Of a stretch of DNA of 41,273 nt, positions 1 to 41,273 are shown in pieces. A model generated the notes under the pieces. It worked only from the letters and a program-made list of their open reading frames with translations, made no database searches and was not told the DNA's origin. Every line of letters starts with the position of its first letter. The first letter of the stretch is position 1. A program made the translations under genes and the position numbers. Source of the stretch: a virus; the IMG/VR virus record IMGVR_UViG_3300028584_000124, positions 1 to 41,273 of that record; one strand, written 5' to 3'.

Positions 1-99
1 CTCATCGCGCGGGAGATGGGGGACATGGGGCAGAAGCGGAACCACATCACCAAGGCCGGATGGTCCTACGTGGAGCGTCTAGCCTCCTTCATCAACTAG
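1..99 (+). CDS. MarR-like regulator gene, 3' end only (exact copy of 41019..41117 created by the window-end overlap)
   Basis: Bases 1..255 are identical to 41019..41273. The reading frame ends ...SYVERLASFIN at TAG 97..99. Confidence 0.8.
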   Translation, partial: LIAREMGDMGQKRNHITKAGWSYVERLASFIN

Positions 100-107
100 G
101 AGCTGAC

Positions 108-1217
108 ATGGCTGTTCGACAGCGCGGCAAGACCTGGCAGGTGGACGTCAAAGTCCAGGGCCAGGACAACCCCACCGGGGAGCTGGTGCGGGTCCGGCAG
201 AACTTCAAGACCGAACGCGAGGCCATCCGCATGGAGCTGCTCATACGGGCGGACATCATGAGGACCGGCCGGTGGAGCCCAGAGCTAGAGGTCGAGGGCG
301 TCGTCCAGCTGAAGAACAAGCGCGCCGAGGGGACCCTCAAAGCCGCCCTGAAGCTGGCCTGGAGCCACCCCACCAAGGGCTGGCAGCACACCAAGGACGG
401 CAAGGGCCAACACCGCAACGCCGAGATGGTCGTGGAGTTTCTCGGCGAGGACACCCTGTGCATCGAGATCACCCACCTCGACTTCGACAGGGCTGCTGCC
501 TACTTCGCCGAGAAGCACAACAGCTCCGACACCGTCACCCGCAAGCTCCAGGCCTTCTACCGGGTCCTGTGGTTCGCCCAGCGGCAGGGCTGGATCAGAG
601 CCCGCCCAGAGTGGGACCGCCCGACACCTGGGAAGGCCCGAGAGTACATCTTCACGCCTGAAGTCGAGGCCGAGGTCATCGCGTACTTCCGCCACATCGA
701 AGGCAATGACGAGCTGGCCGATATGTTCAAGGTCGGCATCGAGACCGGCGGCCGACTTGGTGAGCTACTGGCCGCCCGCGTAGAGGACTGCTCCCTCACC
801 GACAGCTTTATGGTCATCTACGGCGCTGTCCGCGAGGACGGCCGGAGAGACACCAAGAACGCCGAGAGCCGCACCGTGATCCTCACCGACGCCGCCAAGG
901 AAGTCCTGGCCCAGCGCATCAAGGCCATCGGCAAGCGGGGCCTCCTGTTCCCCAACATGAACAGCGAGCACGTCAGCCGGGACATGCGTATGGCCAGGGA
1001 GCACATGGGCGAGGAAGGCAACACCGAGTTCGTCTTCCACGCCACCCGCCACACCTGCGGAACACGCATGGCCGAGCGGGGTGTCCCCCTGAACGACATG
1101 ATGGACCAGCTAGGCCACAAGACTGCGGCCATGACCCGCCGCTACATCAAGCTGTCACCTGCAGCCCGCCGCGCGACCATCCTAGCGGCCATGCAGCCAC
1201 GTCTCACGGGGTCCTAA
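108..1217 (+). CDS. int: tyrosine recombinase / phage integrase
   Basis: ATG 108 follows a GGAG that overlaps the upstream TAG. The C-terminal catalytic signature is HATRHTCGTRMAERG ... LGHKTAAMTRRY (HxxR ... Y). The ORF-track start at 60 overlaps the upstream gene and is rejected. Confidence 0.95.
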   Translation: MAVRQRGKTWQVDVKVQGQDNPTGELVRVRQNFKTEREAIRMELLIRADIMRTGRWSPELEVEGVVQLKNKRAEGTLKAALKLAWSHPTKGWQHTKDGKGQHRNAEMVVEFLGEDTLCIEITHLDFDRAAAYFAEKHNSSDTVTRKLQAFYRVLWFAQRQGWIRARPEWDRPTPGKAREYIFTPEVEAEVIAYFRHIEGNDELADMFKVGIETGGRLGELLAARVEDCSLTDSFMVIYGAVREDGRRDTKNAESRTVILTDAAKEVLAQRIKAIGKRGLLFPNMNSEHVSRDMRMAREHMGEEGNTEFVFHATRHTCGTRMAERGVPLNDMMDQLGHKTAAMTRRYIKLSPAARRATILAAMQPRLTGS

Positions 1218-1267: not shown

Positions 1268-1352
1268 TGGTGGCGGCTCCGGGGATCGAACCCGGATACC
1301 CTTAGGTGGCAGATTTTAAGTCTGCTGCGTCTACCAGTTTCGCCAAGCCGCC
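1268..1352 (-). tRNA. tRNA-Leu (anticodon UAA), class II, CCA encoded
   Basis: The reverse complement reads GGCGGCT-TG-GCGAAACTGGTAGACGC-A-GCAGA-CTTAAAA-TCTGC-CACCTAAGGGTAT-CCGGG-TTCGATC-CCCGG-AGCCGCC-A-CCA. This gives a 7-bp acceptor stem, a 5-bp anticodon stem with TAA at positions 34-36, a long variable arm and a TTCGATC T-loop. Confidence 0.9.
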
Positions 1353-2140: not shown

Positions 2141-2260
2141 CGTGGCCCTGGCCGTGTCCCTTGAGGCCCCATCCGGTGGCCTTGAGGCCCTGGGGCCACA
2201 CCATAACCACTTGAAGTAACAGGAGAATTGCCCAGCCGTAGACGGACTTAAAATCCGGGG

Positions 2261-2281
2261 ATTGCACTTGCGCAATCGCTA
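2261..2281. promoter_or_regulatory. TTGCGCAA palindromic motif, site 1 of 10 (ATTGCACTTGCGCAATCGCTA)
   Basis: Core at 2268..2275, in the gap upstream of the RNAP gene. The sequence is identical to site 37415..37435 and is the exact reverse complement of 15068..15088. TTGCAC ... GCTATG flanks resemble -35/-10 elements. Confidence 0.6.
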
Positions 2282-2354
2282 TGTGGCCCCGAAGAAACTT
2301 AGCTAGTTCAATAGTTTGCCCACCACTCAGGTGGCTGACATCCGACGCGCATAC

Positions 2355-2391
2355 GTGGCCCTGCACTGAGTGGCCCTACGCGCGTGGCCCT
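2355..2391 (+). repeat. three GTGGCCCT octamers at 15- and 14-nt spacing
   Basis: GTGGCCCT occurs at 2355, 2370 and 2384. Related copies are at 2142 (CGTGGCCCTG) and 2283 (GTGGCCCC). All lie in the non-coding stretch before the RNAP start. Confidence 0.7.
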
Positions 2392-2411
2392 GTACCCCAA
2401 GGAACGCCCTC

Positions 2412-5084
2412 ATGACTGCCAACCAAGCCATGGTTGATCCCAGCCTGATGACCGCCCTCGACGAGATCACTGTCGAGCTTACCGACCCCGCCATGGACCG
2501 CCAGTTTGAGCTGGAGGCCGAGATGATCGAAGACGGACGCCACAAGTTCTGGGACCGCATGGAGCGCGCCCGCCCTGGAGTGGACGCGGAAGGCCGCGCC
2601 CGCGAAGGCGAAGAGAGCCGCGCCCCTACCTCCCAGTGCCTCATGCGTCTCTCGCTGAACCCAGTGAAGGACGGCATCGCCGCGTTCATCGCCGCCGCGT
2701 CCTCCGGGAAAGCTGGCCGCAAGCACGCCGCCCTGAAGCACCTGAAGCTGGTGGACCACGAGACCGCCGCCTTCCTGGCCCTCAAGTCCTGCCTCGACGC
2801 CTTCAGCCTGTCCCTTACCGAGGGGGTCCTGTGTGGACGCATCGGCCGCCTGATCGAAGACGAGGTCCGCCTCCGCATCTTCGAGGACAAGGCTGCGGGT
2901 CTGTTGCGCGCGATCCGCAGCCGCTTCGACACCAGCAACTTCAAGCACCACCGCCGGGTACTCAATGCCCTCGCCAAGAGGCACAATGTGGACCTGGGGG
3001 AGCGCTGGTCTGACGTCGAGGCCCTGCACGTCGGCGCTGCCCTCCTGACCCAGGTCATCGAGCGCACCGGCCTGTTTGAGATCGTGATGGTCCAGCGCGG
3101 AGGGGCCGACCGCCACGTCACCGTCCAGCCCACCGCAGCCACCGTGGCATGGGTCCAAGCCCGCGACGGCGCTGCCCAGTTCCTCCTGCCGACCTACATG
3201 CCGATGGTCGTCCAGCCCAAGCAGTGGACCTCGCCGACTGGTGGCGGCTACCGCTTCGGCCTGGCCCGCCGCCTCCGCATGGTCAAGAGCCGCAGCCCCG
3301 GCTATCAGGCCGAGCTGAAGGAGTGGGATATGCCCCTGGTGTACCGCGCTGTGAACGCGCTGCAGGACACGCCCTGGCAGGTGAACACGGACGTCCTCCG
3401 CTACCTGTCCCCTGCCGCGCGCGCAGGTCACGAGTTCGCTGGCCTCCCCTCCACCAAACAGGCCACCGTGCCGCCCGCCCCGGCTGGCATCCCCGCCGAC
3501 AAGGAGAAGCGCACCGAGGCACAGGCCCTGGCCCTCAACGCCTGGAAGTCGCAAGCCCGCGACATCCACGTGGAGAACATCCAGCGCCGCTCCAAGGGTC
3601 TCGTGGTGGCCCGCACCCTGGCCATCGCCGAGAAGTACGCGGAGGAGCCCTGCATCTACTTCCCGTACACCCTGGACTTCCGGGGCCGTGCCTACCCGGT
3701 GCCGTCCTTCCTCCAGCCGCAGGGCTGTGACTACCAGAAGGCCCTCCTGCGGTTCTCCAAGGGCAAGCCCCTCGGTGAGCAAGGCGCGGCCTGGTTGGCC
3801 ATCCACGGTGCCAACCTGATGGCGGACTGCCCTCTCTCCGGTGCGAAGCTCGACAAGGCTGCGCTCCAGACCCGAGTGGACTGGGTGTTCGCCAATGAGC
3901 ACCACATCGTGGCCGCAGCGGCTGACCCCGACGCCAGCGACTTCTGGCTGAAGGCAGGGGGCGGCGAGAGCTGCTGGCAGTTCCTGGCGTTCTGCTTTGA
4001 GTGGGCGGGCTACGTCCGCGAGGGGGCATCCTTCGAGAGCCGCCTCCCCATCGCCCTGGACGGCTCCTGCAACGGCCTCCAGCACTTCTCCGCCATGCTG
4101 CGGGATGAGGTGGGCGGTGCTGCCGTCAACCTCGTGGCCCACAAGCTGCCCGCCGACATCTACATGGAGGTCCGCAACGCCACCCTGGAGCAGATCAAGA
4201 TCGACGCCGCCTGTGCCCTCGTTGAGGTGCCGGACGCGCCGACCGACAAGGAAGCGCTGAAGGCCGAGGACAAGTCGTTCAAGGATATGCGCGCCCTGAA
4301 CGCCGACACCCACGCAGCCCGCGCCTGGATGGGCACCAACCAGCTGGACCGGGACCTGTGCAAGCAGCCTGTCATGACGATGCCCTACGGGTCCAAGCAG
4401 TTCGGCATCCGCCAGCAGCTCGCCCGCAAGCTCGCCAAGAGGGGCTTCGAGTTCATCGACCAGTCAACCGGGGAGGTCTCCGAGGGCTGGAACGAATGTG
4501 GCTACCTCTCCAAGGTCATCTGGGGAAGCCTCGGGTCCGTGGTCGTCAAGGCCCGCGAGGCGATGGACTGGCTCCAAGCCTGTGCCCGCCTGGCAGCCGC
4601 CGAGCAGCAGCCCATCAACTGGGTCACGCCGGACGGCTTCTGGGTCCAGCAGAACTACCGGGAGGCCCACCTGAAGAAGGTCAAGACCCAGGTCGCGGGC
4701 ACCCTGTTCTGGCCCCGAATGGCCGAGGAAGCCGACACCGTGGACAAGCTACGCCAGCAGAACGGCGTGGCTCCGAACTTCGTCCACTCCATGGATGCCA
4801 CCGCCATGCGCGCGTGCATCAACATGTCGTTGGACAACGGGATCGAGGACTTCGCCATGATCCACGACAGCTACGCGGTCCACGCCGCCGACACCGAGCT
4901 GTTCTACGACTGCATCCGCCAGAGCTTCATCGCGATGTACGAGCAGGAGGACGTGCTGGCCAACTTCAGGGCCAATCTGGAAGCCCAGCTCTCGGAAGAG
5001 AGTGTCGAGCTTCTCCCCGCCCCGCCGCTGCCGGGAACCCTTGATCTTCAGGGGATTGCCTGCTCGGACTTCTTCTTCGCCTAG
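2412..5084 (+). CDS. T7-like single-subunit DNA-dependent RNA polymerase
   Basis: 890 aa. Signatures are DGSCNGLQHFSAM, PVMTMPYGSKQFG, HDSYAV and a C-terminal SDFFFA (compare T7 DGSCSGIQHFSAM, IHDSFGT, DFAFA). ATG 2412 follows AAGGAA. The GTG at 2370 from the ORF track lies inside the GTGGCCCT repeats. Confidence 0.97.
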   Translation: MTANQAMVDPSLMTALDEITVELTDPAMDRQFELEAEMIEDGRHKFWDRMERARPGVDAEGRAREGEESRAPTSQCLMRLSLNPVKDGIAAFIAAASSGKAGRKHAALKHLKLVDHETAAFLALKSCLDAFSLSLTEGVLCGRIGRLIEDEVRLRIFEDKAAGLLRAIRSRFDTSNFKHHRRVLNALAKRHNVDLGERWSDVEALHVGAALLTQVIERTGLFEIVMVQRGGADRHVTVQPTAATVAWVQARDGAAQFLLPTYMPMVVQPKQWTSPTGGGYRFGLARRLRMVKSRSPGYQAELKEWDMPLVYRAVNALQDTPWQVNTDVLRYLSPAARAGHEFAGLPSTKQATVPPAPAGIPADKEKRTEAQALALNAWKSQARDIHVENIQRRSKGLVVARTLAIAEKYAEEPCIYFPYTLDFRGRAYPVPSFLQPQGCDYQKALLRFSKGKPLGEQGAAWLAIHGANLMADCPLSGAKLDKAALQTRVDWVFANEHHIVAAAADPDASDFWLKAGGGESCWQFLAFCFEWAGYVREGASFESRLPIALDGSCNGLQHFSAMLRDEVGGAAVNLVAHKLPADIYMEVRNATLEQIKIDAACALVEVPDAPTDKEALKAEDKSFKDMRALNADTHAARAWMGTNQLDRDLCKQPVMTMPYGSKQFGIRQQLARKLAKRGFEFIDQSTGEVSEGWNECGYLSKVIWGSLGSVVVKAREAMDWLQACARLAAAEQQPINWVTPDGFWVQQNYREAHLKKVKTQVAGTLFWPRMAEEADTVDKLRQQNGVAPNFVHSMDATAMRACINMSLDNGIEDFAMIHDSYAVHAADTELFYDCIRQSFIAMYEQEDVLANFRANLEAQLSEESVELLPAPPLPGTLDLQGIACSDFFFA

Positions 5085-5088
5085 AGCA

Positions 5089-5125
5089 TGTCGATTGCGC
5101 AATCGCAATTGAGTGGCATCTACGC
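5089..5125 (+). promoter_or_regulatory. composite site: TTGCGCAA motif (site 2) followed by motif B AATTGAGTGGCATCTAC-GC
   Basis: Palindrome core at 5095..5102 and motif B at 5107..5123, with a 12-nt offset identical to the 15068..15104 composite. It lies directly after the RNAP stop. Confidence 0.6.
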
Positions 5126-5645: not shown

Positions 5646-5798
5646 ATGTTCAACACCACTGCCCATGCTCGGGCCATCGCCATATCCGCCGCTTGCCAGT
5701 TCTGGACGCGCGGCCAGCCCGTCCCCCTCAACATCCTGGCCCGCCTCGACAGCCTCGGCTGCGACATCCAGGCCCTGGAAGCCCGTTACGCCGTCTAG
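5646..5798 (+). CDS. hypothetical small protein (50 aa)
   Basis: GGAAAGG precedes ATG 5646 (MFNTTAHARA...). High GC3. It ends just before palindrome site 3. Confidence 0.45.
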   Translation: MFNTTAHARAIAISAACQFWTRGQPVPLNILARLDSLGCDIQALEARYAV

Positions 5799-5802
5799 GC
5801 CG

Positions 5803-5822
5803 TAGCGATTGCGCAACCGCAA
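5803..5822. promoter_or_regulatory. TTGCGCAA palindromic motif, site 3 (TAGCGATTGCGCAACCGCAA)
   Basis: Core at 5809..5816, about 20 nt upstream of the SSB start. Confidence 0.6.
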
Positions 5823-10468: not shown

Positions 10469-11981
10469 ATGGCCCTACGGCTTCTCTACGATCTGGAGAC
10501 CGATGGCCTTGAAGCTGAAGTCACCCAGGTTCACTGCCTCGTAACCGCCAACCTCGACACAGGTGCATACCGCGCCTACGTGCCGCCCTACTATAACCTC
10601 GACCTGATCAGGAAGAACTTCCCTGACCTTGAACACGTCGGCGTCATCGAAGATGGCCTCGACTATCTCGCCACTTCTGACTACTTGGCGGGTCACAACA
10701 TCCTCTCCTACGATAACCCAGTCCTCGACAACCTGTACCCCGGCCGGTTCAACTGGCGGAAGTACAAGCTGCTCGACACCTTGGTCCTCTCGAAGCTGGT
10801 CTTCTCGGACATCAAGGACGGCGACCAAGCGCGCATCAAGGCTGGCACCTTCCCGCCTGGCCTCATGTTCCGCCCCCACTCCCTCGAAGCCTGGGGCTAC
10901 CGCCTTGGCTGCAACAAGGGGGACTACTCGGCCGACATGAAGGCCAACGGGCTGGACCCGTGGGCGAACTTCAACGAGCCCATGCTGGCCTACTGTATTC
11001 AGGACGTTGAACTGAACGTCCAACTGTGGAAGGTCCTGCGCAACAAGAAGCCGGACCCCCGCGCTGTTGAGCTTGAGCTGGAAATCTCCCGCATCATCCT
11101 CCAGCAGGAGCGCAACGGGTTCCCCTTCGACGAACGTAAGGCCGGTGAGCTGTACGCCACCCTGTCCGCCCGACGCCAGGACCTCCTCGACCAGTGCACC
11201 GCCCTGTTCCCCGCCTGGTGGGCTCCCACGACCGTGGCCACCACCTCCAAGGGGCGGAAGGTCAAGCGCCCCGAGTTCGGCACCAAGGTCGTCAAGCGCT
11301 TCAGCCTGACCACCGGCAAGCCGCTGCAGGACCGCGTCGAGGCCATCACCGAGGACTACGTCGAGGGCACCCAGCACACCAAGATGCGGCTGGTCACCTT
11401 CAACCCCTCCAGCCGGGACCATGTCTCCGACCGCTTCATGAAGCTGTACGGCTGGCAGCCCACTGAGTTCGGGAACGACGGCAAGCCGACGGTGGATGAC
11501 GACATCCTCACCGCCCTTCCCTACCCGCCCGCCAAGCTCCTCGCCGAGTACTATATGATCGAGAAGCGGGTCGGCATGTTGGCCGAGGGCAAGCAAGCCT
11601 GGCTGAAGGCAGTCCGCGACCACCGCATCCACGGCCGGGTCAACACCAACGGCGCTGTCACTGGCCGAGCCACGCACTCCAGCCCCAACGTCGCCCAGGT
11701 CCCGTCCATCCACAACGCGGATGGCCCCGTGCCGTTTGGCCGAGAGTGCCGCGAGCTGTTCACTACGGTGTCCAGTGTCCCGGCCCTGGCTGCCCAGTAC
11801 GGCACCGACTGGGTCCTCGTGGGTGCCGACGCCTCTGGTCTGGAGCTGCGCTGCCTGGCGCACTTCATGTCCCCGTTCGACAATGGGGCCTACGCAGACA
11901 CGGTCGTGAACGGAGACGTCCACACCATAAACATGCACGCCGCCGGTCTCGCTACCAGAGCCCAGGCCAAGACCTTCATCT
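10469..11981 (+). CDS. T7 gp5-like family A DNA polymerase, exon 1
   Basis: Exo motif LYDLETDGL, then GRVNTNGAVTGRATHSSPNVAQVP, motif A GADASGLELRCLAHF, and the start of motif B RAQAKTFI. Similarity to T7 gp5 stops after AKTFI, and the frame then runs into a stop at 12029. Confidence 0.9.
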
Positions 11982-12655
11982 TAGAAATCGGGATGACTTC
12001 ACGGGCGACCGTGATGACAAAAACTCTGTGAACTCAGGGAACACCCCACGCGGGCAATCCTGAGCCAAGCCCTGTGCCCCTCTCCCAACTTCCGGGGAGG
12101 TAATCATGAAGCACCCTAACGGAAGGTTCTTCGCAAAGCCCTGCCGCTGCTGCGGCTCTGACTTTGCGCCAGAAGCTCCATCACATTTGTACTGCTCTGA
12201 AAGCTGCAAGCTGGATGGCAATGCACACGCCTACTATATGCGATGCTACGGCATCTCCCTGAAAACTGTCAGGGGGATGGCCGCCGAACAGAACAACCAA
12301 TGTGGCCTGTGTGGTCGCGTCGGCTTCAAGATGACGGCGGACCACCGTAGCTTGCTAAATGTAGATCACTGCCACGCATCGGGCCGAGTTCGTAAGCTGT
12401 TGTGCCACAACTGCAACCGAGCACTCGGCCTACTCCAAGACAACCCGGAGCTGATGCGTAAAGCAGCCGACTATATTGAGGCGCACAGGGAAGGTGCAAC
12501 GACTATCCCTACGGGGAGTAGGCCAGAAGCGATTGCTGGCCGAAGCGCAGAGCCCTCTGGAAACAGAGGTGATGATATAGTCTGGACCCGGCGGCAACGT
12601 CGGGCAGCTTGAACAAAGCGGGCAGGGGCGTAGCGTCCCCTGCTGAACACCCTCG
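11982..12655 (+). mobile_element. group I intron (674 nt) with HNH homing-endonuclease ORF
   Basis: P1 pairs exon TCATCT (11976..11981) with GGATGA (11991..11996), with a U-G pair at the 5' splice site. The intron ends in G at 12655. Core-like segments are GGGCAATCCTGAGCCAAGCC (12052..12071) and GATATAGTCTGGACC (12574..12588). GNRA hairpins are CCTCTG-GAAA-CAGAGG (12554..12569) and a GCAA-loop hairpin (12587..12604). Joining the exons restores AKTFI-Y-AFLYGAG. Confidence 0.8.
12106..12612 (+). CDS. HNH endonuclease (endonuclease VII / His-Me finger type), intron-encoded
   Basis: GGGGAGG RBS. Motif CGLCGR...NVDHCHASGRVRKLLCHNCNRALG (DH.H..G..R.LLC..CN..LG). GC is lower than in flanking DNA. 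The ORF is in a different frame from the polymerase exons. Confidence 0.9.
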   Translation: MKHPNGRFFAKPCRCCGSDFAPEAPSHLYCSESCKLDGNAHAYYMRCYGISLKTVRGMAAEQNNQCGLCGRVGFKMTADHRSLLNVDHCHASGRVRKLLCHNCNRALGLLQDNPELMRKAADYIEAHREGATTIPTGSRPEAIAGRSAEPSGNRGDDIVWTRRQRRAA

Positions 12656-13236
12656 ACGCATTTTTATACGGAGCTGGCGCAGAGAAGATCGGCTCGATCA
12701 CCGGAGTAACGCCCACCGAGATCATCGCTCTGGGCGGCAACAAGACCGTCATCAATCGGCTCATCAAGCAGGGCCGCACGCCCACCCCGGAACTCGTGGC
12801 GACCATCGCCAAGGGCCAGAAGCTGATGGACAGCTTCCTGAACAAGACGCCCGCCCTGAAGGCCCTCCGCAAGAAGGTCGGAGAGAAGTTCAAGGAGACC
12901 GGCACCCTCAAGGGGCTGGACGGCCGGACGCTCAAGTGCCGCTCGGAACACTCCGCCCTCAACACCCTGCTGCAATCCGCCGGTGCCTTGCTCTGCAAGC
13001 GCTGGATCGTGGAGATGCACGCGGCCTTCGAGGAGCGCGGGTGGAAGAACGGCGTGGACTATATGCAGTCGGCATGGGTCCACGACGAAGTCCAAATTCA
13101 ATGCCGAAAGGAAATCGCTGATGAACTCGGCAAGATCGCGACCGACTGTGTCGCAAGAGCCGGGAACTACTTCGGCTTCCGCCTACCACTTGCTGGCGAA
13201 TACAAAGCCGGACAGTCCTGGGCCGACACGCACTGA
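12656..13236 (+). CDS. T7 gp5-like DNA polymerase, exon 2
   Basis: It begins AC|GCA TTT TTA TAC GGA GCT GGC, giving (Y)AFLYGAGAEKIG (T7: YGFLYGAGDEKIG). Further matches are HSALNTLLQSAGALLCKRW and AWVHDEVQIQC (T7 HAALNTLLQSAGALICKLW, AWVHDEIQVGC). The frame is continuous with exon 1 after splicing. Confidence 0.9.
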
Positions 13237-14471: not shown

Positions 14472-15070
14472 GGCTCATCCACCTGGCTACCTGCCCGGTC
14501 ATGACCAAGACCACCCGCCCCGTGGTGTCCACCGGCGGCGACCCCTTCGGCGACACCGGAACGGAAGACCTCCGCCGAGGCGCTACAGCTACCCGCTTCC
14601 TCGACACGTCCATCGTTGCCGCGCATCTTGCCGGGGCCGAGCTGCTGAAGCGCTACACCGCCACGCAGGGCACCGCCGCCACGCGCTACCCGGACGACAA
14701 CCCCAAGACCATCCACGGGTTCGCCAAGCCGTCCATCTCCCTGGTCCCTCCCGTGGCTATCGTGGAGATGGCCAGGGCCTTCCGCCACGGCGCTGACAAG
14801 TACGGCCCCGCCAACTGGCGCGACAAGCCGGTCACCATCCAGACCTATATCGACGCCGCCTTGCGCCACCTGCTGGCCATCGCGGACGGCGAGGATGTGG
14901 ACCCGGAGAGCGGCTGCTTCCATGCCGCCCATGTCGCCAGCTGCATGGCGATCATCATGGACGCCAAGGCCAGCGGCACCCTTCAAGACCGCCGCCCCAC
15001 CCCCGGCCAGGCCGCCGAGCTGATCCGCCAGTACACCGCAGCCACCGCCCCTCCCACGCCCGCAGTGTAG
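14426..15070 (+). CDS. DUF5664-like (MazG-type all-alpha dATP/dGTP pyrophosphohydrolase-like) protein
   Basis: KPSISLVPPVAIVEMARAFRHGADKYGPANWRDK...YIDAALRHLLAIADGEDVDPESGCFHAAHVASCMAIIMD matches the remembered DUF5664 pattern (KP...L.PP.AL..LA.V..FGA.KYG..NW..G...Y..A..RHL.A...GE..D.ESG..HLAH). AAGGAG lies 9 nt before ATG 14426. An alternative start is at 14501. Confidence 0.6.
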   Translation: MGTRRTDCPHCGVGLGLIHLATCPVMTKTTRPVVSTGGDPFGDTGTEDLRRGATATRFLDTSIVAAHLAGAELLKRYTATQGTAATRYPDDNPKTIHGFAKPSISLVPPVAIVEMARAFRHGADKYGPANWRDKPVTIQTYIDAALRHLLAIADGEDVDPESGCFHAAHVASCMAIIMDAKASGTLQDRRPTPGQAAELIRQYTAATAPPTPAV

Positions 15071-15104
15071 CGATTGCGCAAGTGCAATTGAGTGGCATCT
15101 ATGC
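15068..15104 (+). promoter_or_regulatory. composite site: TTGCGCAA motif (site 4) followed by motif B AATTGAGTGGCATCTAT-GC
   Basis: Palindrome core at 15074..15081 and motif B at 15086..15102, with the same 12-nt offset as at 5089..5125. It lies at the boundary between the replication and structural modules. Confidence 0.6.
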
Positions 15105-19042: not shown

Positions 19043-19546
19043 ATGCCTAGTGCAGTTTTCCAAGGCGTTGTTGGCCAGAGCGCCTTCAAGATGCCCTTCC
19101 CTGTAACCCCCGCCACCCCGGTGACCGTCTATGTTGACGGGGTCCTGGCATCCCACACGATCAAGGACGTTGACGTCACCCTGACCACGCCCCTGGCCGC
19201 TGCCGCAGTGGTGGAAGTCCGTGGCGGCTTCGTGGATGAAGTCCCCACCGTCCGCCCTCTCGCCGAGAACCTGACGCTCACCGCCGGTACAGGAACTGTC
19301 GCCGCCGAAGAGGTGACCGGCGGTTCTCTGCTGGTGACCATCACGGCCACTGCCTGGAACTCCGCGTCGATCAAGGTCCAGTACCGCACCAAGTCCGGCA
19401 TCTGGTTGGACGCCATGACCGCTGCCGGTGTCACTGCGAGCCTCACGGCGGACGGCACCACCAACGTTGTCGTCGGGTCCATCTCCGCGCTGCGGTTGCT
19501 GGCGACCGGCGGCAATCCGGCAGGTGTCACTGCGTGGGTCAGCTAG
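19043..19546 (+). CDS. tail-fibre N-terminal (gp17 adaptor-like) protein
   Basis: SAFKMPFPVTPATPVTVYVDGV resembles the T7 gp17 N-terminus DFNIPFEYLARKFVVVTLIGV. The rest is beta-rich T/V/A sequence. Only 167 aa. Confidence 0.45.
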   Translation: MPSAVFQGVVGQSAFKMPFPVTPATPVTVYVDGVLASHTIKDVDVTLTTPLAAAAVVEVRGGFVDEVPTVRPLAENLTLTAGTGTVAAEEVTGGSLLVTITATAWNSASIKVQYRTKSGIWLDAMTAAGVTASLTADGTTNVVVGSISALRLLATGGNPAGVTAWVS

Positions 19547-19717
19547 ATGCCGCTCCCTAAATCATTCGGCTTGGCACGCGGCTGGGCCATGGCGGGGGGC
19601 GGCCTATCCGCTGTCCCCCAGAACACGGGTGGGGGGGCTGGTTCTCTGATCCTGCGGAACGGATCGGCGCTCATCTTGCGCAACGGCACACCCTACCAAT
19701 TGAGGAGCGCAGCATGA
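19547..19717 (+). CDS. hypothetical small protein with duplicated LILRNG motif
   Basis: ATG abuts the upstream TAG, and its TGA overlaps the next ATG (ATGA). It contains SLILRNGSALILRNG. Codon usage matches the following gene. Below the ORF-track cutoff. Confidence 0.4.
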   Translation: MPLPKSFGLARGWAMAGGGLSAVPQNTGGGAGSLILRNGSALILRNGTPYQLRSAA

Positions 19718-21018
19718 CCCGCGCCACCGACATCTCGCCATTCTCAGATGACGCGGCCGACCTGCGCCGCTTGGTCGGATCGAAGACACCGCGCTTTGCG
19801 TCGAACAAGAACGGCCCGCCGGGCGGCCTGAACTCGGGAACGAACAAGACGAGCAATGCGGTCACGGGGGACGCGACAACTATCCGTCGAACCTTCCGGC
19901 TTCCGTCAGATCGCACCTTGGGCGACTTCCAGTGGAAGTTCTCGAACTGGCGTTTGTCGCCCACTGAGACGGCCGGAGATAATGACCTGACGATCGTTAA
20001 GGTCGCTCTCGACTACGCAGGCACCATTTATCCGATCTTCTTCAACGGAAAGCGGTCGGTCACCATCGAGCCCAACGGTGAAGTGCTGAGCGACCCGATT
20101 TCTCCGCGTATCCCGCCTGGCGCGACAGTCTCCCTGCGCTACCGCCCCACCGTGCCTACCGGTGGGACCATGCCCACCGGGCGCGGGACGAATATTAGCG
20201 TTGGCGATCTTTGGAACGGCAAGGATGGGCCTGACATCGTCGATGCGACCGGAACGAGCGGCTTTCTCGCGGACAGCACGTATTTTGCGTATGGCCCTTC
20301 GGCGATGCTGGCGACGGAGAAGACTGGATCGAAGCCGACCGTACTGATTGTGGGCGACAGCATCGGGGCTGGCCAGGGTGAGACGACCCTGACTGCTGAT
20401 GGCGACATCGGCTTTATCGAACGAGGCCTGGCAGGCCGTTATCCGTGGGGCGCTATTGCGCGCGGAAATCAGTCCTTCATCACGATCGCCAATAATCCAT
20501 CAAAGCAAATGACCTATGCTCGTTTCGCTACGAGTGCGCTTTCGAATTTGGGGATCAACGACTTCTACAATCCCGGTATCGCTACGTCAGACAGCCCGAA
20601 CCTAGACGTGGTACAGGCGCGTGCGCTGGCGCTCTGGACGCAACTTGCCGAGGCGGGTCTTCGAGTTCATCAAACCACCCTGACCCCAGTCACAACGAGC
20701 ACTGACGCGTGGGCGACGACGACCAATCAGACGATCTACTGGCCCAACCAAAACGCCAAGCGCGTGAACTTCAACGATTGGCTGCGGACGGGCGCGCCGA
20801 TCATCGCCGGGGTTGCCGTCGCTGTTGGCACGTCCGGAGCGCTTCTGGCTGGCCAATATGGTCACCCACTCGCGGGCTATATCGAGATCGCTGATACCGT
20901 CGAGAGCGCCCGGAACTCTGGGCTTTGGGCGGCGGGCCTGACCGGCGATGGAACGCACCCAAAGTCGGCAGGGCATCTGCTGATGTCAGCTCCAGTCGCC
21001 GCCTATTCGTTCGAATAG
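19714..21018 (+). CDS. SGNH/GDSL hydrolase-domain protein (probable tail-associated polysaccharide esterase)
   Basis: AGGAG RBS. Block I LIVGDSIGAG, block III GINDF, block V DGTHPKSAGH. The N-terminal ~190 aa are non-catalytic and beta-rich. GC3 is visibly lower than in neighbours. Confidence 0.8.
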   Translation: MTRATDISPFSDDAADLRRLVGSKTPRFASNKNGPPGGLNSGTNKTSNAVTGDATTIRRTFRLPSDRTLGDFQWKFSNWRLSPTETAGDNDLTIVKVALDYAGTIYPIFFNGKRSVTIEPNGEVLSDPISPRIPPGATVSLRYRPTVPTGGTMPTGRGTNISVGDLWNGKDGPDIVDATGTSGFLADSTYFAYGPSAMLATEKTGSKPTVLIVGDSIGAGQGETTLTADGDIGFIERGLAGRYPWGAIARGNQSFITIANNPSKQMTYARFATSALSNLGINDFYNPGIATSDSPNLDVVQARALALWTQLAEAGLRVHQTTLTPVTTSTDAWATTTNQTIYWPNQNAKRVNFNDWLRTGAPIIAGVAVAVGTSGALLAGQYGHPLAGYIEIADTVESARNSGLWAAGLTGDGTHPKSAGHLLMSAPVAAYSFE

Positions 21019-37339: not shown

Positions 37340-37414
37340 CCTGCTGGACCTTGTGACAGCCCGTCAAGCCTTACGGTGCGGGCGTCTGTCTGTTTTCTTT
37401 CATCGGATATGCAG

Positions 37415-37435
37415 ATTGCACTTGCGCAATCGCTA
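37415..37435. promoter_or_regulatory. TTGCGCAA palindromic motif, site 5 (ATTGCACTTGCGCAATCGCTA); candidate leftmost early promoter/operator
   Basis: Core at 37422..37429. The 21-mer is identical to site 1. TTGCAC and GCTATG flank the palindrome. It is the first site upstream of the early gene block. Confidence 0.6.
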
Positions 37436-37591
37436 TGGGTTCGATAGACAGTCAATACCGGACGGCGGAGACGCCAACCGGGCGGGGCTCCAGGGCCTCG
37501 GGTCTTTGACATTGTGAAGAGGTCGCGGGGTTCTAGCCTCGCCTGATGAGCCCTAGCAGGGCGAAACCTCAACCTTATTGCGCCTCAAGCC

Positions 37592-37612
37592 TAGCGCTTG
37601 CGCAATTGCAAT
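37592..37612. promoter_or_regulatory. TTGCGCAA palindromic motif, site 6 (TAGCGCTTGCGCAATTGCAAT)
   Basis: Core at 37598..37605, immediately upstream of the GGAG RBS and start of the first early gene. A half-site-like TTGCGCC lies ~20 nt upstream. Confidence 0.6.
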
Positions 37613-37624
37613 CGGAGCATGACC

Positions 37625-38032
37625 ATGGGCGACAACGTCGCAATCCTCGCGGGCTTCACCACGGAGCTTGAAGGCTCCAATGACCGGGGCGACATCGCGT
37701 TCCTGCTGGTCGAGCCCGCCACCGACTTGGACGGCACGTTCCGCGCTTGGGACATGGATGCGCAAGGGTTCATCCGCGTGGATGGCTGGCGCTGGACCTT
37801 CGATACGATGGCTGATCACCGCCCGGTGGAACTGGCCGTCCAATGCGTCCCGCCCGGTGGCGAGGAACCCGCGTCGTTCCTCTTTCGGAGGTCGCCGGGT
37901 CAGACGATCAGGGAAGGCGAGCTTGTCTCCCCTACCTTTGACAGCCTCGCGACGCTCTTCCCGTGGTGCACGGCGAACGGCTGGGCAAGCACGGGAGGCC
38001 TTGGCTGCACCTTCCGCAAGGTGGCCGCCTAG
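37625..38032 (+). CDS. first early protein, acidic N-terminal half, function unknown
   Basis: GGAG lies 8 nt before ATG 37625 (alternative ATG at 37619). High GC3. It occupies the position of T7 gene 0.3, but no sequence similarity is recognised. Confidence 0.6.
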   Translation: MGDNVAILAGFTTELEGSNDRGDIAFLLVEPATDLDGTFRAWDMDAQGFIRVDGWRWTFDTMADHRPVELAVQCVPPGGEEPASFLFRRSPGQTIREGELVSPTFDSLATLFPWCTANGWASTGGLGCTFRKVAA

Positions 38033-38035
38033 ACC

Positions 38036-38056
38036 ATTGCACTTGCGCAATCACCA
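38036..38056. promoter_or_regulatory. TTGCGCAA palindromic motif, site 7 (ATTGCACTTGCGCAATCACCA)
   Basis: Core at 38043..38050. The left arm is identical to sites 1 and 5, and the right arm is degenerate. Confidence 0.55.
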
Positions 38057-38752: not shown

Positions 38753-39025
38753 ATGCGTCAAGCTATCGTCACCAAGTGGCACGGCCCTACCAACTACAGC
38801 GGCTCGCGTATCAAGGCCAAGGCTGCAGCGGGGTCTATCACCGTCCCGTGGGACTACGCCTTGAACGTCGCAGACAACCACACAGCCGCCGCCCGCGCCC
38901 TCGTTGAGAAGCTCGAATGGGCGGGGGTCTGGTCGGGCGGCGGGATGCCCAGCGGTGACGGCTATGTCTTCGTTGACGCGTCGGGGGCGGAGCCCTTCAC
39001 CGGCACTCCCGCGCCCCGCGCGTAG
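38753..39025 (+). CDS. hypothetical protein
   Basis: GGAG RBS. 90 aa (MRQAIVTKWHGPTNYSGSRIKAKA...). High GC3. Confidence 0.6.
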   Translation: MRQAIVTKWHGPTNYSGSRIKAKAAAGSITVPWDYALNVADNHTAAARALVEKLEWAGVWSGGGMPSGDGYVFVDASGAEPFTGTPAPRA

Positions 39026-39042
39026 CGGTTGCGCAATCGCCC
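39023..39042. promoter_or_regulatory. TTGCGCAA palindromic motif, site 8 (TAGCGGTTGCGCAATCGCCC)
   Basis: Core at 39029..39036. The site starts on the stop codon of the upstream gene. Confidence 0.55.
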
Positions 39043-39588: not shown

Positions 39589-40134
39589 ATGACCACCCAA
39601 AGCCCCATCCGCCTGTCCCGCGAAGAACTGACCGCGCTGGACCCGTGCGACCAAGACCGCCGCCTGGCCCTGTTTGGCCGCAGGAAGTACCTCACGGCCC
39701 GACTGGCGATGGAAGCCGGGGCGACTGTGAGTGATCTATTGTGGGTCGCTGGACGACTTGGGCGCAAAGACCTGTGCGTGAAGTTCGCCCTGGCCTGTGC
39801 CCAGCGGACGGCCCACCTCAACCCAGACCAGCGTGTCCAAGCAGCGTTGGACGCCACGGCGGCTTGGCTTGCCAATCCTTGCGAGGACACCCAGTCGGCG
39901 GCGTGGTCGGCGGCGGAGGCGGCGTGGTCGGCGGCGAGGTCGGCGGAGGCGAGGTCGGCGGCGGAGGCGGCGTGGTCGGCGGCGGCGAGGTCGGCGGCGG
40001 AGGCGGCGTGGTCGGCGGCGAGGTCGGCGGAGGCGAGGTCGGCGGCGGAGGCGGCGTGGTCGGCGGCGGAGGCGGCGTGGTCGGCGGAGCAAGAGGAACA
40101 GAAGGTCATCTTCCTGTCGATCTTCGACGCCTAG
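39589..40134 (+). CDS. early protein with C-terminal AAWSAA(E/R) tandem repeats
   Basis: 181 aa. A helical N-terminal domain is followed by 65 residues composed only of A, S, W, E and R (SAAWSAAEAAWSAARSAEARSAAEAAW...). Confidence 0.7.
   Translation: MTTQSPIRLSREELTALDPCDQDRRLALFGRRKYLTARLAMEAGATVSDLLWVAGRLGRKDLCVKFALACAQRTAHLNPDQRVQAALDATAAWLANPCEDTQSAAWSAAEAAWSAARSAEARSAAEAAWSAAARSAAEAAWSAARSAEARSAAEAAWSAAEAAWSAEQEEQKVIFLSIFDA
39895..40089 (+). repeat. in-frame tandem repeat built from five codons (TCG, GCG, TGG, GAG, AGG)
   Basis: It has 21-nt (GCGGCGGAGGCGGCGTGGTCG) and 48-nt units. All six frames are open across it, which accounts for the spurious Arg/Gly/Pro-rich ORFs in the track. 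Confidence 0.9.
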
Positions 40135-40138
40135 CCCA

Positions 40139-40159
40139 TAGCGCTTGCGCAACTGCAAG
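40139..40159. promoter_or_regulatory. TTGCGCAA palindromic motif, site 9 (TAGCGCTTGCGCAACTGCAAG)
   Basis: Core at 40145..40152, a few nt after the stop of the repeat-protein gene. Confidence 0.55.
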
Positions 40160-40790: not shown

Positions 40791-41117
40791 ATGGCAACCA
40801 AAGACGTGAACCTGAAGGCCCAGCAACTCAGTAGGGTCATGGAGGCGCTTCTCTCCCTGGATGGCAATATGCCCGTCATCCAGGGTCTCATCTTTCTCTA
40901 CGTCGCATCTCAGGATCGCGGAACGGGTACTGGGCCGAACGGCCTGGCCATCGCCGAGGCCTTAAAGATCGACGCCACCCGCGTCTCCCGCAACCTGACC
41001 CGCCTCACCAGCGCCGGTCTCATCGCGCGGGAGATGGGGGACATGGGGCAGAAGCGGAACCACATCACCAAGGCCGGATGGTCCTACGTGGAGCGTCTAG
41101 CCTCCTTCATCAACTAG
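40791..41117 (+). CDS. MarR-like winged-helix transcriptional regulator (candidate prophage repressor)
   Basis: 108 aa. LAIAEALKIDATRVSRNLTRLTSAGLIAREM...RNHITKAGWSYVE has the MarR-type recognition helix plus wing layout. Its stop lies 8 nt before the int start. The longer ORF-track start (40548) would place motif site 10 inside coding sequence. Confidence 0.6.
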   Translation: MATKDVNLKAQQLSRVMEALLSLDGNMPVIQGLIFLYVASQDRGTGTGPNGLAIAEALKIDATRVSRNLTRLTSAGLIAREMGDMGQKRNHITKAGWSYVERLASFIN

Positions 41118-41125
41118 GAGCTGAC

Positions 41126-41273
41126 ATGGCTGTTCGACAGCGCGGCAAGACCTGGCAGGTGGACGTCAAAGTCCAGGGCCAGGACAACCCCACCGGGGAG
41201 CTGGTGCGGGTCCGGCAGAACTTCAAGACCGAACGCGAGGCCATCCGCATGGAGCTGCTCATACGGGCGGACA
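41126..41273 (+). CDS. int: integrase gene, 5' end only (exact copy of 108..255)
   Basis: It is part of the 255-bp window-end overlap and is truncated by the window edge. Confidence 0.9.
   Translation, partial: MAVRQRGKTWQVDVKVQGQDNPTGELVRVRQNFKTEREAIRMELLIRAD

Follow-up and report, generated by a model that had tools for sequence, protein, structure and literature searches.

A probable mobile group I intron with an endonuclease-VII-type gene within the gene for the DNA polymerase of a T7-like phage

We analysed the viral record IMGVR_UViG_3300028584_000124 (41,273 nt; this whole stretch is referred to as the window), in which the gene for a family-A DNA polymerase is interrupted by an insert of 674 nt at positions 11982..12655. 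The insert is very probably a group I intron of subgroup IA2 that is mobile and splices itself out. It was identified by a match to the Rfam family RF00028, by twelve homologous introns at the same site, by an RNAalifold fold with pair counts, and by ends like those of the polymerase intron of Pseudomonas phage LUZ24. The insert has the sequence anatomy of a group I intron, is homologous to and covaries with its relatives, restores the polymerase reading frame when removed, and is identical to the LUZ24 intron in its site and in the family of its endonuclease. An earlier note, made from the sequence alone, had proposed a group I intron with an endonuclease gene at this place, and all the motifs and coordinates that it quoted are correct in the window. 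The exons, the intron parts and the endonuclease gene described below lie on the plus strand.

The interrupted polymerase gene and its splice sites

The first open reading frame (ORF) of the polymerase, 10469..12031, matches the Pfam family DNA_pol_A and resembles T7 gp5 as far as ...RAQAKTFI. Past ...AKTFI it continues for 16 non-polymerase codons and then stops at a TGA (12029). Polymerase likeness is regained at 12658 (AFLYGAGAEKIG) in a different frame and extends through 13236. Exon 1 was accordingly placed at 10469..11981, covering T7 gp5 residues 3-525 and ending in the T that is the first base of a Tyr codon, and exon 2 at 12656..13236, starting with the AC of that codon and ending in a stop at 13234..13236. 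Joining T11981 to A12656 gives TAC (Tyr) and the motif KTFIYAFLYGAG within an uninterrupted 697-aa ORF, the very restoration of K-T-F-I-Y-A-F-L-Y-G-A-G that had been predicted. When the spliced product was aligned with T7 gp5, residues 6-697 were included (E 1.6e-127) and the junction KTFIY/AFLYGAG was gap-free. KTFIYAFLYGAG lies opposite T7 K522-G533, and the split Tyr codon is the equivalent of T7 Y526 in motif B (the O-helix), which places the proposed break inside motif B at a single codon. Y526 is the residue governing dideoxynucleotide discrimination in T7. The window polymerase is at most 46% identical to any polymerase of a deposited phage; a megablast search with the polymerase region found no match among deposited phages, and a scan of the spliced polymerase against genome contigs gave no relative.

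The splice sites were examined across 13 introns at this site. The upstream exon ends in ...AAR ACN, followed by one of TTC ATC, TGG ATA, TGG TTC or TTT ATC and then T, and the intron ends in ...G, followed by AY GCN. In the window, the exon sequence TCATCT (11976..11981) pairs with the guide GGATGA (11991..11996) to form P1 (11976..11996), with a U11981-G11991 wobble at the cleavage site and U11982-G11990 extending the helix. Exon and guide change together among the relatives (TTCATCT/GGATGA, GGATAT/GTATCC, GGTTCT/GGAACC, TTTATCT/GGATA), and the U-G pair stands at a constant place in 12 of the 13 aligned rows, the sole exception being an alignment shift. The 6-bp P1 described in the earlier note is thus backed by exon-guide covariation. 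The terminal guanosine (omega-G, 12655) is kept in all 13 same-site introns and in LUZ24, and the splice sites agree between the 12 homologous introns and the mapped ends of the LUZ24 intron.

LUZ24 provides the closest experimental precedent among the introns compared. Its 669-bp polymerase intron splices in vivo, as determined by cDNA analysis and ONT-cappable-seq (PMC10914365, citing Ceyssens et al. 2008), and the spliced cDNA is without positions 19143-19811 (PMC10914365). In LUZ24 the exon end AAGACCTTCATCT is followed by an intron starting GTGAGATATGGATGA... and ending ...TTTTG, after which exon 2 resumes with ATGCGTTC, yielding KTFI-Y-AFIYGAG. The insertion point is the same in both phages (AAGACCTTCATCT before the intron and AYGC after it, in the Tyr codon of KTFIYAF), as is the guide GGATGA. 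The introns are similar in length (669 and 674 nt), their cores are homologous (blastn segments 66-79% identical), and both carry their endonuclease in the P6 region, gp35 of LUZ24 sharing 56% identity with that of the window over residues 1-126 (E 2.7e-53). In contrast, the two polymerases are only ~34% identical and the host phages are unrelated; LUZ24 is without the gene order that goes with a T7-type RNA polymerase, and the window phage has an integrase. The ORFs also differ in extent, since that of LUZ24 stops immediately before P7 whereas that of the window is 43 codons longer and runs through the core to P9.1.

Further introns in the same codon were found in the Desulfovibrio phage ProddE, in Aeromonas phage MQM1 (intron 1), in a Pseudoblastomonas flavescens prophage (CP129107) and on the contigs L004-L008, L011, L127 and L131-L133, all of them from deposited or metagenomic T7-like phages. 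With the ORF deleted, their cores are 58-85% identical to that of the window at the nucleotide level. Most carry an Endo VII-type endonuclease 48-71% identical to the window's; ProddE and MQM1 intron 1 have none. The ProddE polymerase is split at the codon used in the window and was annotated by its depositors with 'Contains intron', and the authors of MQM1 suggested 'putative introns' (PMC10410586). We found no experimental splicing data in the literature for the same-site introns of ProddE, MQM1, Pseudoblastomonas or the contigs. The Pseudoblastomonas locus (L130, CP129107.1 1603196..1623573) is a T7-like prophage in the bacterial chromosome whose polymerase is split by the same intron with an endonuclease; the endonuclease is 69% and the polymerase ~41% identical to those of the window.

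Fold and covariation of the ribozyme

A covariance-model search of 11900..12750 with an E-value threshold matched RF00028 at 11970..12604 (37.8 bits, E 5.9e-8), with the model aligned end to end (1-253); relative to it, the P6 loop is longer by a 397-nt insertion and 38 additional nt follow P7. The G+C content of the intron is 57.6%, compared with 64.6% for the window. This full-length match and the covariation among relatives described below bear out the earlier assignment to group I.

The helices could be placed along the whole insert. P1 is followed by the P2 hairpin CACGG-GCGA-CCGTG (12000..12013), of which relatives keep the GNRA cap and alter the stem. The 5' strand of P3, CTCTGTG (12024..12030), pairs over a distance of 516 nt with CGCAGAG (12546..12552), a partner supported by the pair counts. 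P4 (12033..12039 with 12058..12064) encloses P5 (12044..12046 with 12052..12054), the two occupying 12033..12064. The 5' strand of P6/P6a (CCCTGTGC, C, CCTC; 12070..12082) pairs with the 3' strand (GAGG, C, GCACAGGG; 12478..12490) according to the fold and the pair counts, and seven of the eight P6 pairs covary. P7 is formed by GACTA (12501..12505) and TAGTC (12578..12582, inside GATATAGTC), the latter located by the Rfam consensus. Between its strands lie P7.1 (TCCC-TACG-GGGA, 12506..12517), a GTA linker (12518..12520) and P7.2 (GGCCAG...CTGGCC, 12521..12541), then the P3 3' strand and the P8 hairpin CCTCTG-GAAA-CAGAGG (12554..12569), with covariation in five of six pairs. P9 is the hairpin CCCGGCG-GCAA-CGTCGGG (12587..12604), assigned from pair counts. 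The last helices, P9.1 and P9.2 (12607..12644), consist of GCTT (12607..12610) with AAGC (12616..12619), a region that contains the endonuclease stop TGA (12610..12612), and of 12621..12630 with 12634..12644. The segment GGGCAATCCTGAGCCAAGCC (12052..12071) corresponds to P5', P4' and the start of P6, and GATATAGTCTGGACC (12574..12588) to the P7 3' strand. GNRA caps are found on P8 (GAAA, 12560..12563) and on P9 (GCAA, 12594..12597). Subgroup IA2 is marked by the extra helices P7.1 and P7.2 between P7 and P3', linked by G-U-A (PMC3428280). In the window these two helices are joined by GUA, and P7.2 covaries in five of six pairs.

Covariation was assessed on a MAFFT alignment of the 13 same-site introns, from which the P6a loop and ORF had been cut and replaced with GAAA (window 12085..12476 removed). 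Unguided RNAalifold recovered P1, P2, P3, P4, P5, P6, P6a, P7.1, P7.2, P8, P9 and P9.2, with 77 pairs, 50 of them compensatory. For the pair counts, P7 was added to this fold as a pseudoknot. Paired cells made up 94.5% of the total compared to 77.4% in shuffles, none of 500 shuffles reaching the observed value, and fell to 37-47% when partners were slid by 1-3 columns. Double changes were seen in 50 of 78 pairs compared to 6-21 in the slid controls, and the covariation score was 0.514 compared to at most 0.13 in the controls. P3, which spans the ORF, had 100% paired cells and changes on both sides in six of its seven pairs; P4, P5, P6 and P8 covary as well. P7 (GACTA/TAGTC) is invariant in all 13 introns and so speaks neither for nor against pairing, and it agrees with the Rfam consensus GACUA...UAGUC. 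In the MAFFT alignment P2 is one column out of place in the window and L004, as is P1 in L005 and L132, so the percentages of paired cells for these helices are underestimates. A P10-type pairing of 4-5 bp (GCAU/AUGC) was seen in L127 and L133 and is not conserved across the set; a search by eye for P9.0 found nothing conserved.

By analogy with the general group I mechanism, the polymerase gene would be transcribed as a single pre-mRNA in which the intron adopts the P1-P9.2 fold. A free guanosine bound by P7 would attack after U11981, held in P1 by its wobble with G11991, and the released exon 1 would then attack after G12655, ligating the exons. Ligation would create the TAC codon and the O-helix KTFIYAFLYGAG, and the 697-aa polymerase would be translated from the joined message.

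Several observations weigh against the assignment of the insert as a mobile self-splicing intron. P5 of the window has just 3 bp, P6a contains a C-C mismatch (C12078 opposite C12482), and a search by eye for a convincing P10 (P1 loop with the 3' exon) gave at most 2 bp in the window. The endonuclease ORF crosses the catalytic core, so that translating ribosomes would unfold the ribozyme. We infer both splicing and homing in the window phage from its relatives. Finally, the covariance-model scan proposed in the earlier note gave a significant E-value but a score under the curated gathering cut-off of RF00028 (37.8 compared to 50 bits), and a scan of the whole window at the gathering threshold reported tRNA only and not the intron. 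The LUZ24 intron, for which splicing is proven, likewise scores under the cut-off (40.8 bits). Homologous introns that are ORF-less score above it (Ralstonia phage BOESR1, 91.4 bits; MQM1 intron 1, 75.1), as does the second intron of MQM1 (61.0), and two same-site relatives that have an ORF or are longer exceed it narrowly (ProddE, 53.0 bits; the Pseudoblastomonas prophage, 52.9). The shortfall in the window is consistent with the 397-nt P6 insertion and the extra P7.1 and P7.2. Since a sub-threshold score is typical of the ORF-bearing group, including the proven intron of LUZ24, we do not regard it as counter-evidence.

The endonuclease gene and alternative readings of the insert

The P6a loop contains a gene of 168 aa (12106..12612) for a homing endonuclease of the Endonuclease VII (DHHRN) type. 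Residues 46-125 match Endonuclease_7 (Pfam PF02945) with 64.4 bits against a cut-off of 23.6 (E 8.8e-18), in line with the endonuclease-VII-type ORF that had been proposed, and PHROG endonuclease VII families (to E 1.4e-27), Hpy99I and T4 Endo VII were also matched. A strong ribosome-binding site, GGAGG (12096..12100), is located 5 nt upstream of the ATG. DHHRN enzymes are defined by the zinc ligands CX2C...CX2C and by catalytic D-H-x-H, R and N (PMC6083498). The window ORF keeps C66-x2-C69, D87-H88-C89-H90, R94/R96 and C100-x2-C103-N104; all of these are conserved in nine homologues, and the zinc and catalytic positions align with those of T4 Endo VII and Hpy99I. In total 855 homologues were found, the best being ~70% identical over the full length. 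F-CphI, which typifies DHHRN homing endonucleases, has the catalytic motif of the window ORF and differs in being free-standing beside an intron (PMC6083498). Yersinia phages Berlin and YpP-G, as well as LUZ24, are listed as having intron-encoded members in their polymerase genes (PMC6083498). As far as we found, the literature holds no assayed enzyme of the subgroup to which the window endonuclease belongs.

Divergence at codon positions 1/2/3 was compared among the nine homologues. It was 0.24/0.22/0.58 for residues 1-45 and 0.35/0.26/0.60 for residues 46-125, third positions diverging 1.7-2.6 times more than first and second positions. This excess indicates selection on the protein over residues 1-125. 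Over residues 126-168 the values were 0.145/0.182/0.255; these last 43 codons overlap P6', P7, P7.1, P7.2, P3', P8, P7' and P9, and here the RNA rather than the protein is constrained.

Three further observations bear on mobility. Between phages with polymerases only 34-43% identical, the endonucleases share 55-71% identity. The G+C content of the window endonuclease gene at third codon positions is 0.66, compared to 0.81-0.89 in host genes. In Bordetella phage BB8 and Pseudomonas phage LUZ100, whose polymerase genes have no intron, the sequence reads AAGACNTTYATCT/ACGCCT..., a near-match to the ligated exons of the window; the comparison with intron-less homologues that had been proposed thus identified alleles that have an intact site and are candidate targets of the endonuclease. 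Together, the conservation of the endonuclease, its low third-position G+C and the intact intron-less sites are consistent with horizontal transfer through homing. Homing in the window phage would presumably begin when a relative lacking the intron infects the same cell: the endonuclease would cut or nick that relative's uninterrupted AAGACNTTYATCT/ACGC... sequence, and repair off the intron-bearing allele would copy the intron into it.

It is also possible, although we consider it doubtful, that the endonuclease gene and the ribozyme are interlocked as a switch, translation and splicing being mutually exclusive for each RNA molecule, with P6a serving as a landing pad and the core supplying a C-terminus and stop to unrelated endonucleases. 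The Shine-Dalgarno GGAGG can pair with 12079..12085, the 5' strand of distal P6a, in competition with the P6a 3' strand (12478..12481). The resulting local hairpin CCTCTCC/GGGGAGG (12079..12100) may mask the Shine-Dalgarno sequence and would exclude distal P6a. Its minimum free energy is -11.3 kcal/mol, and on its own it does not reach significance (z -1.1; 27 of 200 shuffles are at least as stable); the complementarity arises in part because GGAGG resembles the P6a 3' strand GAGG. Eight relatives have analogous Shine-Dalgarno hairpins with differing flanks. Masking of the ribosome-binding site of an intron endonuclease has been described for I-TevI of the T4 td intron. We also observed that endonucleases that seem to come from different families share the frame in which their ORFs read into the core (EGATTI, GAA GGT GCA ACG ACT ATC). 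Of 30 long ORFs, 26 use this frame, although many of these are mutually related, and three groups use other frames. This entry is found at 12481..12612 in the window and in L002, L026, L001 intron 2, L035, L036, L055, L076 and others. A comparable overlap of ORF and core has been reported in cyanophage Pf-WMP3 (PMC3428280).

Among the alternatives to a mobile intron, the one that survives best holds that the intron splices while its endonuclease no longer homes, being inactive or having another role, and that the element is only inherited vertically in the window phage. We consider this unlikely. The flat divergence of the last 43 codons would agree with it, decay of the endonuclease does occur in this intron family (the ORF of L063 is frameshifted), and ORF-less introns exist at the same site in MQM1 (intron 1) and ProddE. 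However, the window ORF is intact and every catalytic and zinc position of Endo VII is present, the excess of third-position changes over residues 1-125 is what selection on a protein would produce, the start is preceded by its strong GGAGG, and the endonuclease is much better conserved between phages than the polymerase.

Far less credible is a polymerase that is truly split or dead, in which a free-standing endonuclease gene has inserted, nothing is spliced, and either two polypeptides assemble or the gene has no function. Gene callers do annotate such loci as two polymerase ORFs and an endonuclease, and the Rfam score under the gathering cut-off could be read in the same way. Yet exon 2 has neither a start codon nor a ribosome-binding site at the junction: no in-frame start occurs in its frame between the stops at 12610/12631 and the junction, and the earliest is at 12796, 47 codons downstream. 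The O-helix would be destroyed in a split product because exon 2 could start only there. Moreover, the 674-nt insert has every group I helix, with covariation that includes the long-range P3 across 516 nt, an equivalent intron at the same site splices in LUZ24, and the window, with its terminal repeats, comprises an entire phage genome in which the other genes are intact. The endonuclease ORF and polymerase exon 2 share a reading frame and are separated solely by two stops, TGA at 12610 and TAG at 12631. An intein or a group II intron, for which no supporting observation emerged, was rejected, as the insert is out of frame with the exons and contains stops at 12029 and 12610, no intein or reverse-transcriptase domains were found, and RF00028 was the sole significant RNA family.

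Related introns and the host phage

The group I intron of the window belongs to a large family of phage introns, whose members are found in many different genes. The introns of T7-like and SPO1-like phages mentioned in the earlier note agree with published accounts (PMC3428280, PMC6083498). IA2 introns with HNH endonucleases are known in the T7-like polymerases of PhiI and W31 (Bonocora and Shub 2004, as cited in PMC3428280), and Pf-WMP3 has an IA2 polymerase intron encoding I-PfoP3I (PMC3428280). These three share with the window subgroup IA2, the P7.1-GUA-P7.2 arrangement, an ORF in P6a and insertion into a conserved polymerase motif (PMC3428280), and the Pf-WMP3 ORF, like that of the window, extends through P6, P7, P7.1 and P7.2 (PMC3428280). 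They differ in their insertion sites, which lie at E. coli Pol I 881 and 674 (PMC3428280), and in their endonucleases, which are classical HNH enzymes rather than of the Endo VII (DHHRN) type.

Other related IA2 introns lie close to the window site. In Salmonella phage Vi06, L126 and L115 the intron is 5 nt upstream, after the TT of a Phe codon, and in Ralstonia phage BOESR1 and L026 it is 11 nt downstream, after a Leu codon. All five have a homologous IA2 core (3' half 74-83% identical) in the same polymerase motif, with different guides and splice points. The endonucleases of Vi06 and L026 have no Pfam match and BOESR1 has no ORF. The O-helix thus has three intron insertion points within 16 nt. 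The MQM1 polymerase has a second group I intron downstream (L001 3584..4215) with an HNH_3-type endonuclease, and the ORF of this intron likewise terminates inside the core, where the GUAG that separates P7.1 from P7.2 provides the TAG. Blastn of the window intron against deposited phages detected its 3' core in 48 records (74-83% identity), and several of the matches are at polymerase/endonuclease junctions; one match lies in the terminase large-subunit gene of phage DSS3_VP1. In all the contexts retrieved, the order was polymerase exon 1, Endonuclease_7 and polymerase exon 2, and the contigs were T7-like; the Pseudoblastomonas prophage is one of these cases. At least 120 IMG/VR contigs contain the 17-mer AAGGTGCAACGACTATC of the core, and among the matches listed ~100 are outside T7-like polymerases.

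The window spans the complete genome of a T7-like phage, of which 41,018 bp are unique; its first 255 nt recur without a mismatch as a direct repeat at the other end (1..255 = 41019..41273). An integrase ORF begins at 60, inside the repeat, and the repeat may therefore stem from overlap in the assembly of a genome that is circular or permuted, and not represent the physical ends of a T7-style molecule. The genome encodes a tyrosine integrase, a tRNA-Leu, a T7-type RNA polymerase, SSB, endonuclease I, an amidase, a primase-helicase, the polymerase, an exonuclease and a portal protein. The integrase (60..1217, plus strand) adjoins the tRNA-Leu(UAA) gene (1268..1352, minus strand), and the genome has a T7-type RNA polymerase gene (2370..5084) and T7 gene order; this combination points to a temperate T7-like phage, and the integrase fits the 'temperate-type relative' of the earlier note. 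A repeat of ~31 nt around CGCCTAG...TAGCGATTGCGCAATCGCAA is present in seven copies, several of them intergenic (5078..5108, 5792..5822, 15057..15087, 37581..37611, 38026..38056, 39012..39042 and 40128..40158). These copies may be promoters for the phage RNA polymerase. We also noted an exact 24-nt repeat pair (2260..2283 = 37414..37437) and a G+C-rich tandem array (39848..40111) of 9-15-nt units resembling GGCGGCG[T/A]GGTCGGCGGCGGA, with ~15 overlapping copies, within overlapping ORFs that lack an assigned function.

The intron and its endonuclease are a further case of a well-known type of mobile element, in the codon that is also occupied by the proven intron of LUZ24, and the current understanding of group I introns is unchanged by them. 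Their consequences concern annotation and host range. The Rfam gathering threshold skips these ORF-bearing introns, the proven one of LUZ24 included, and routine pipelines under-call them as a result. The polymerase of the window phage, and of many metagenomic T7-like phages, is to be annotated as a single spliced gene (697 aa in the window) rather than as two fragments and a stray endonuclease. The mobile intron family, which targets the O-helix codon equivalent to T7 Y526, gains two hosts, a T7-like phage that is high in GC and probably temperate, and a prophage in a bacterial chromosome.

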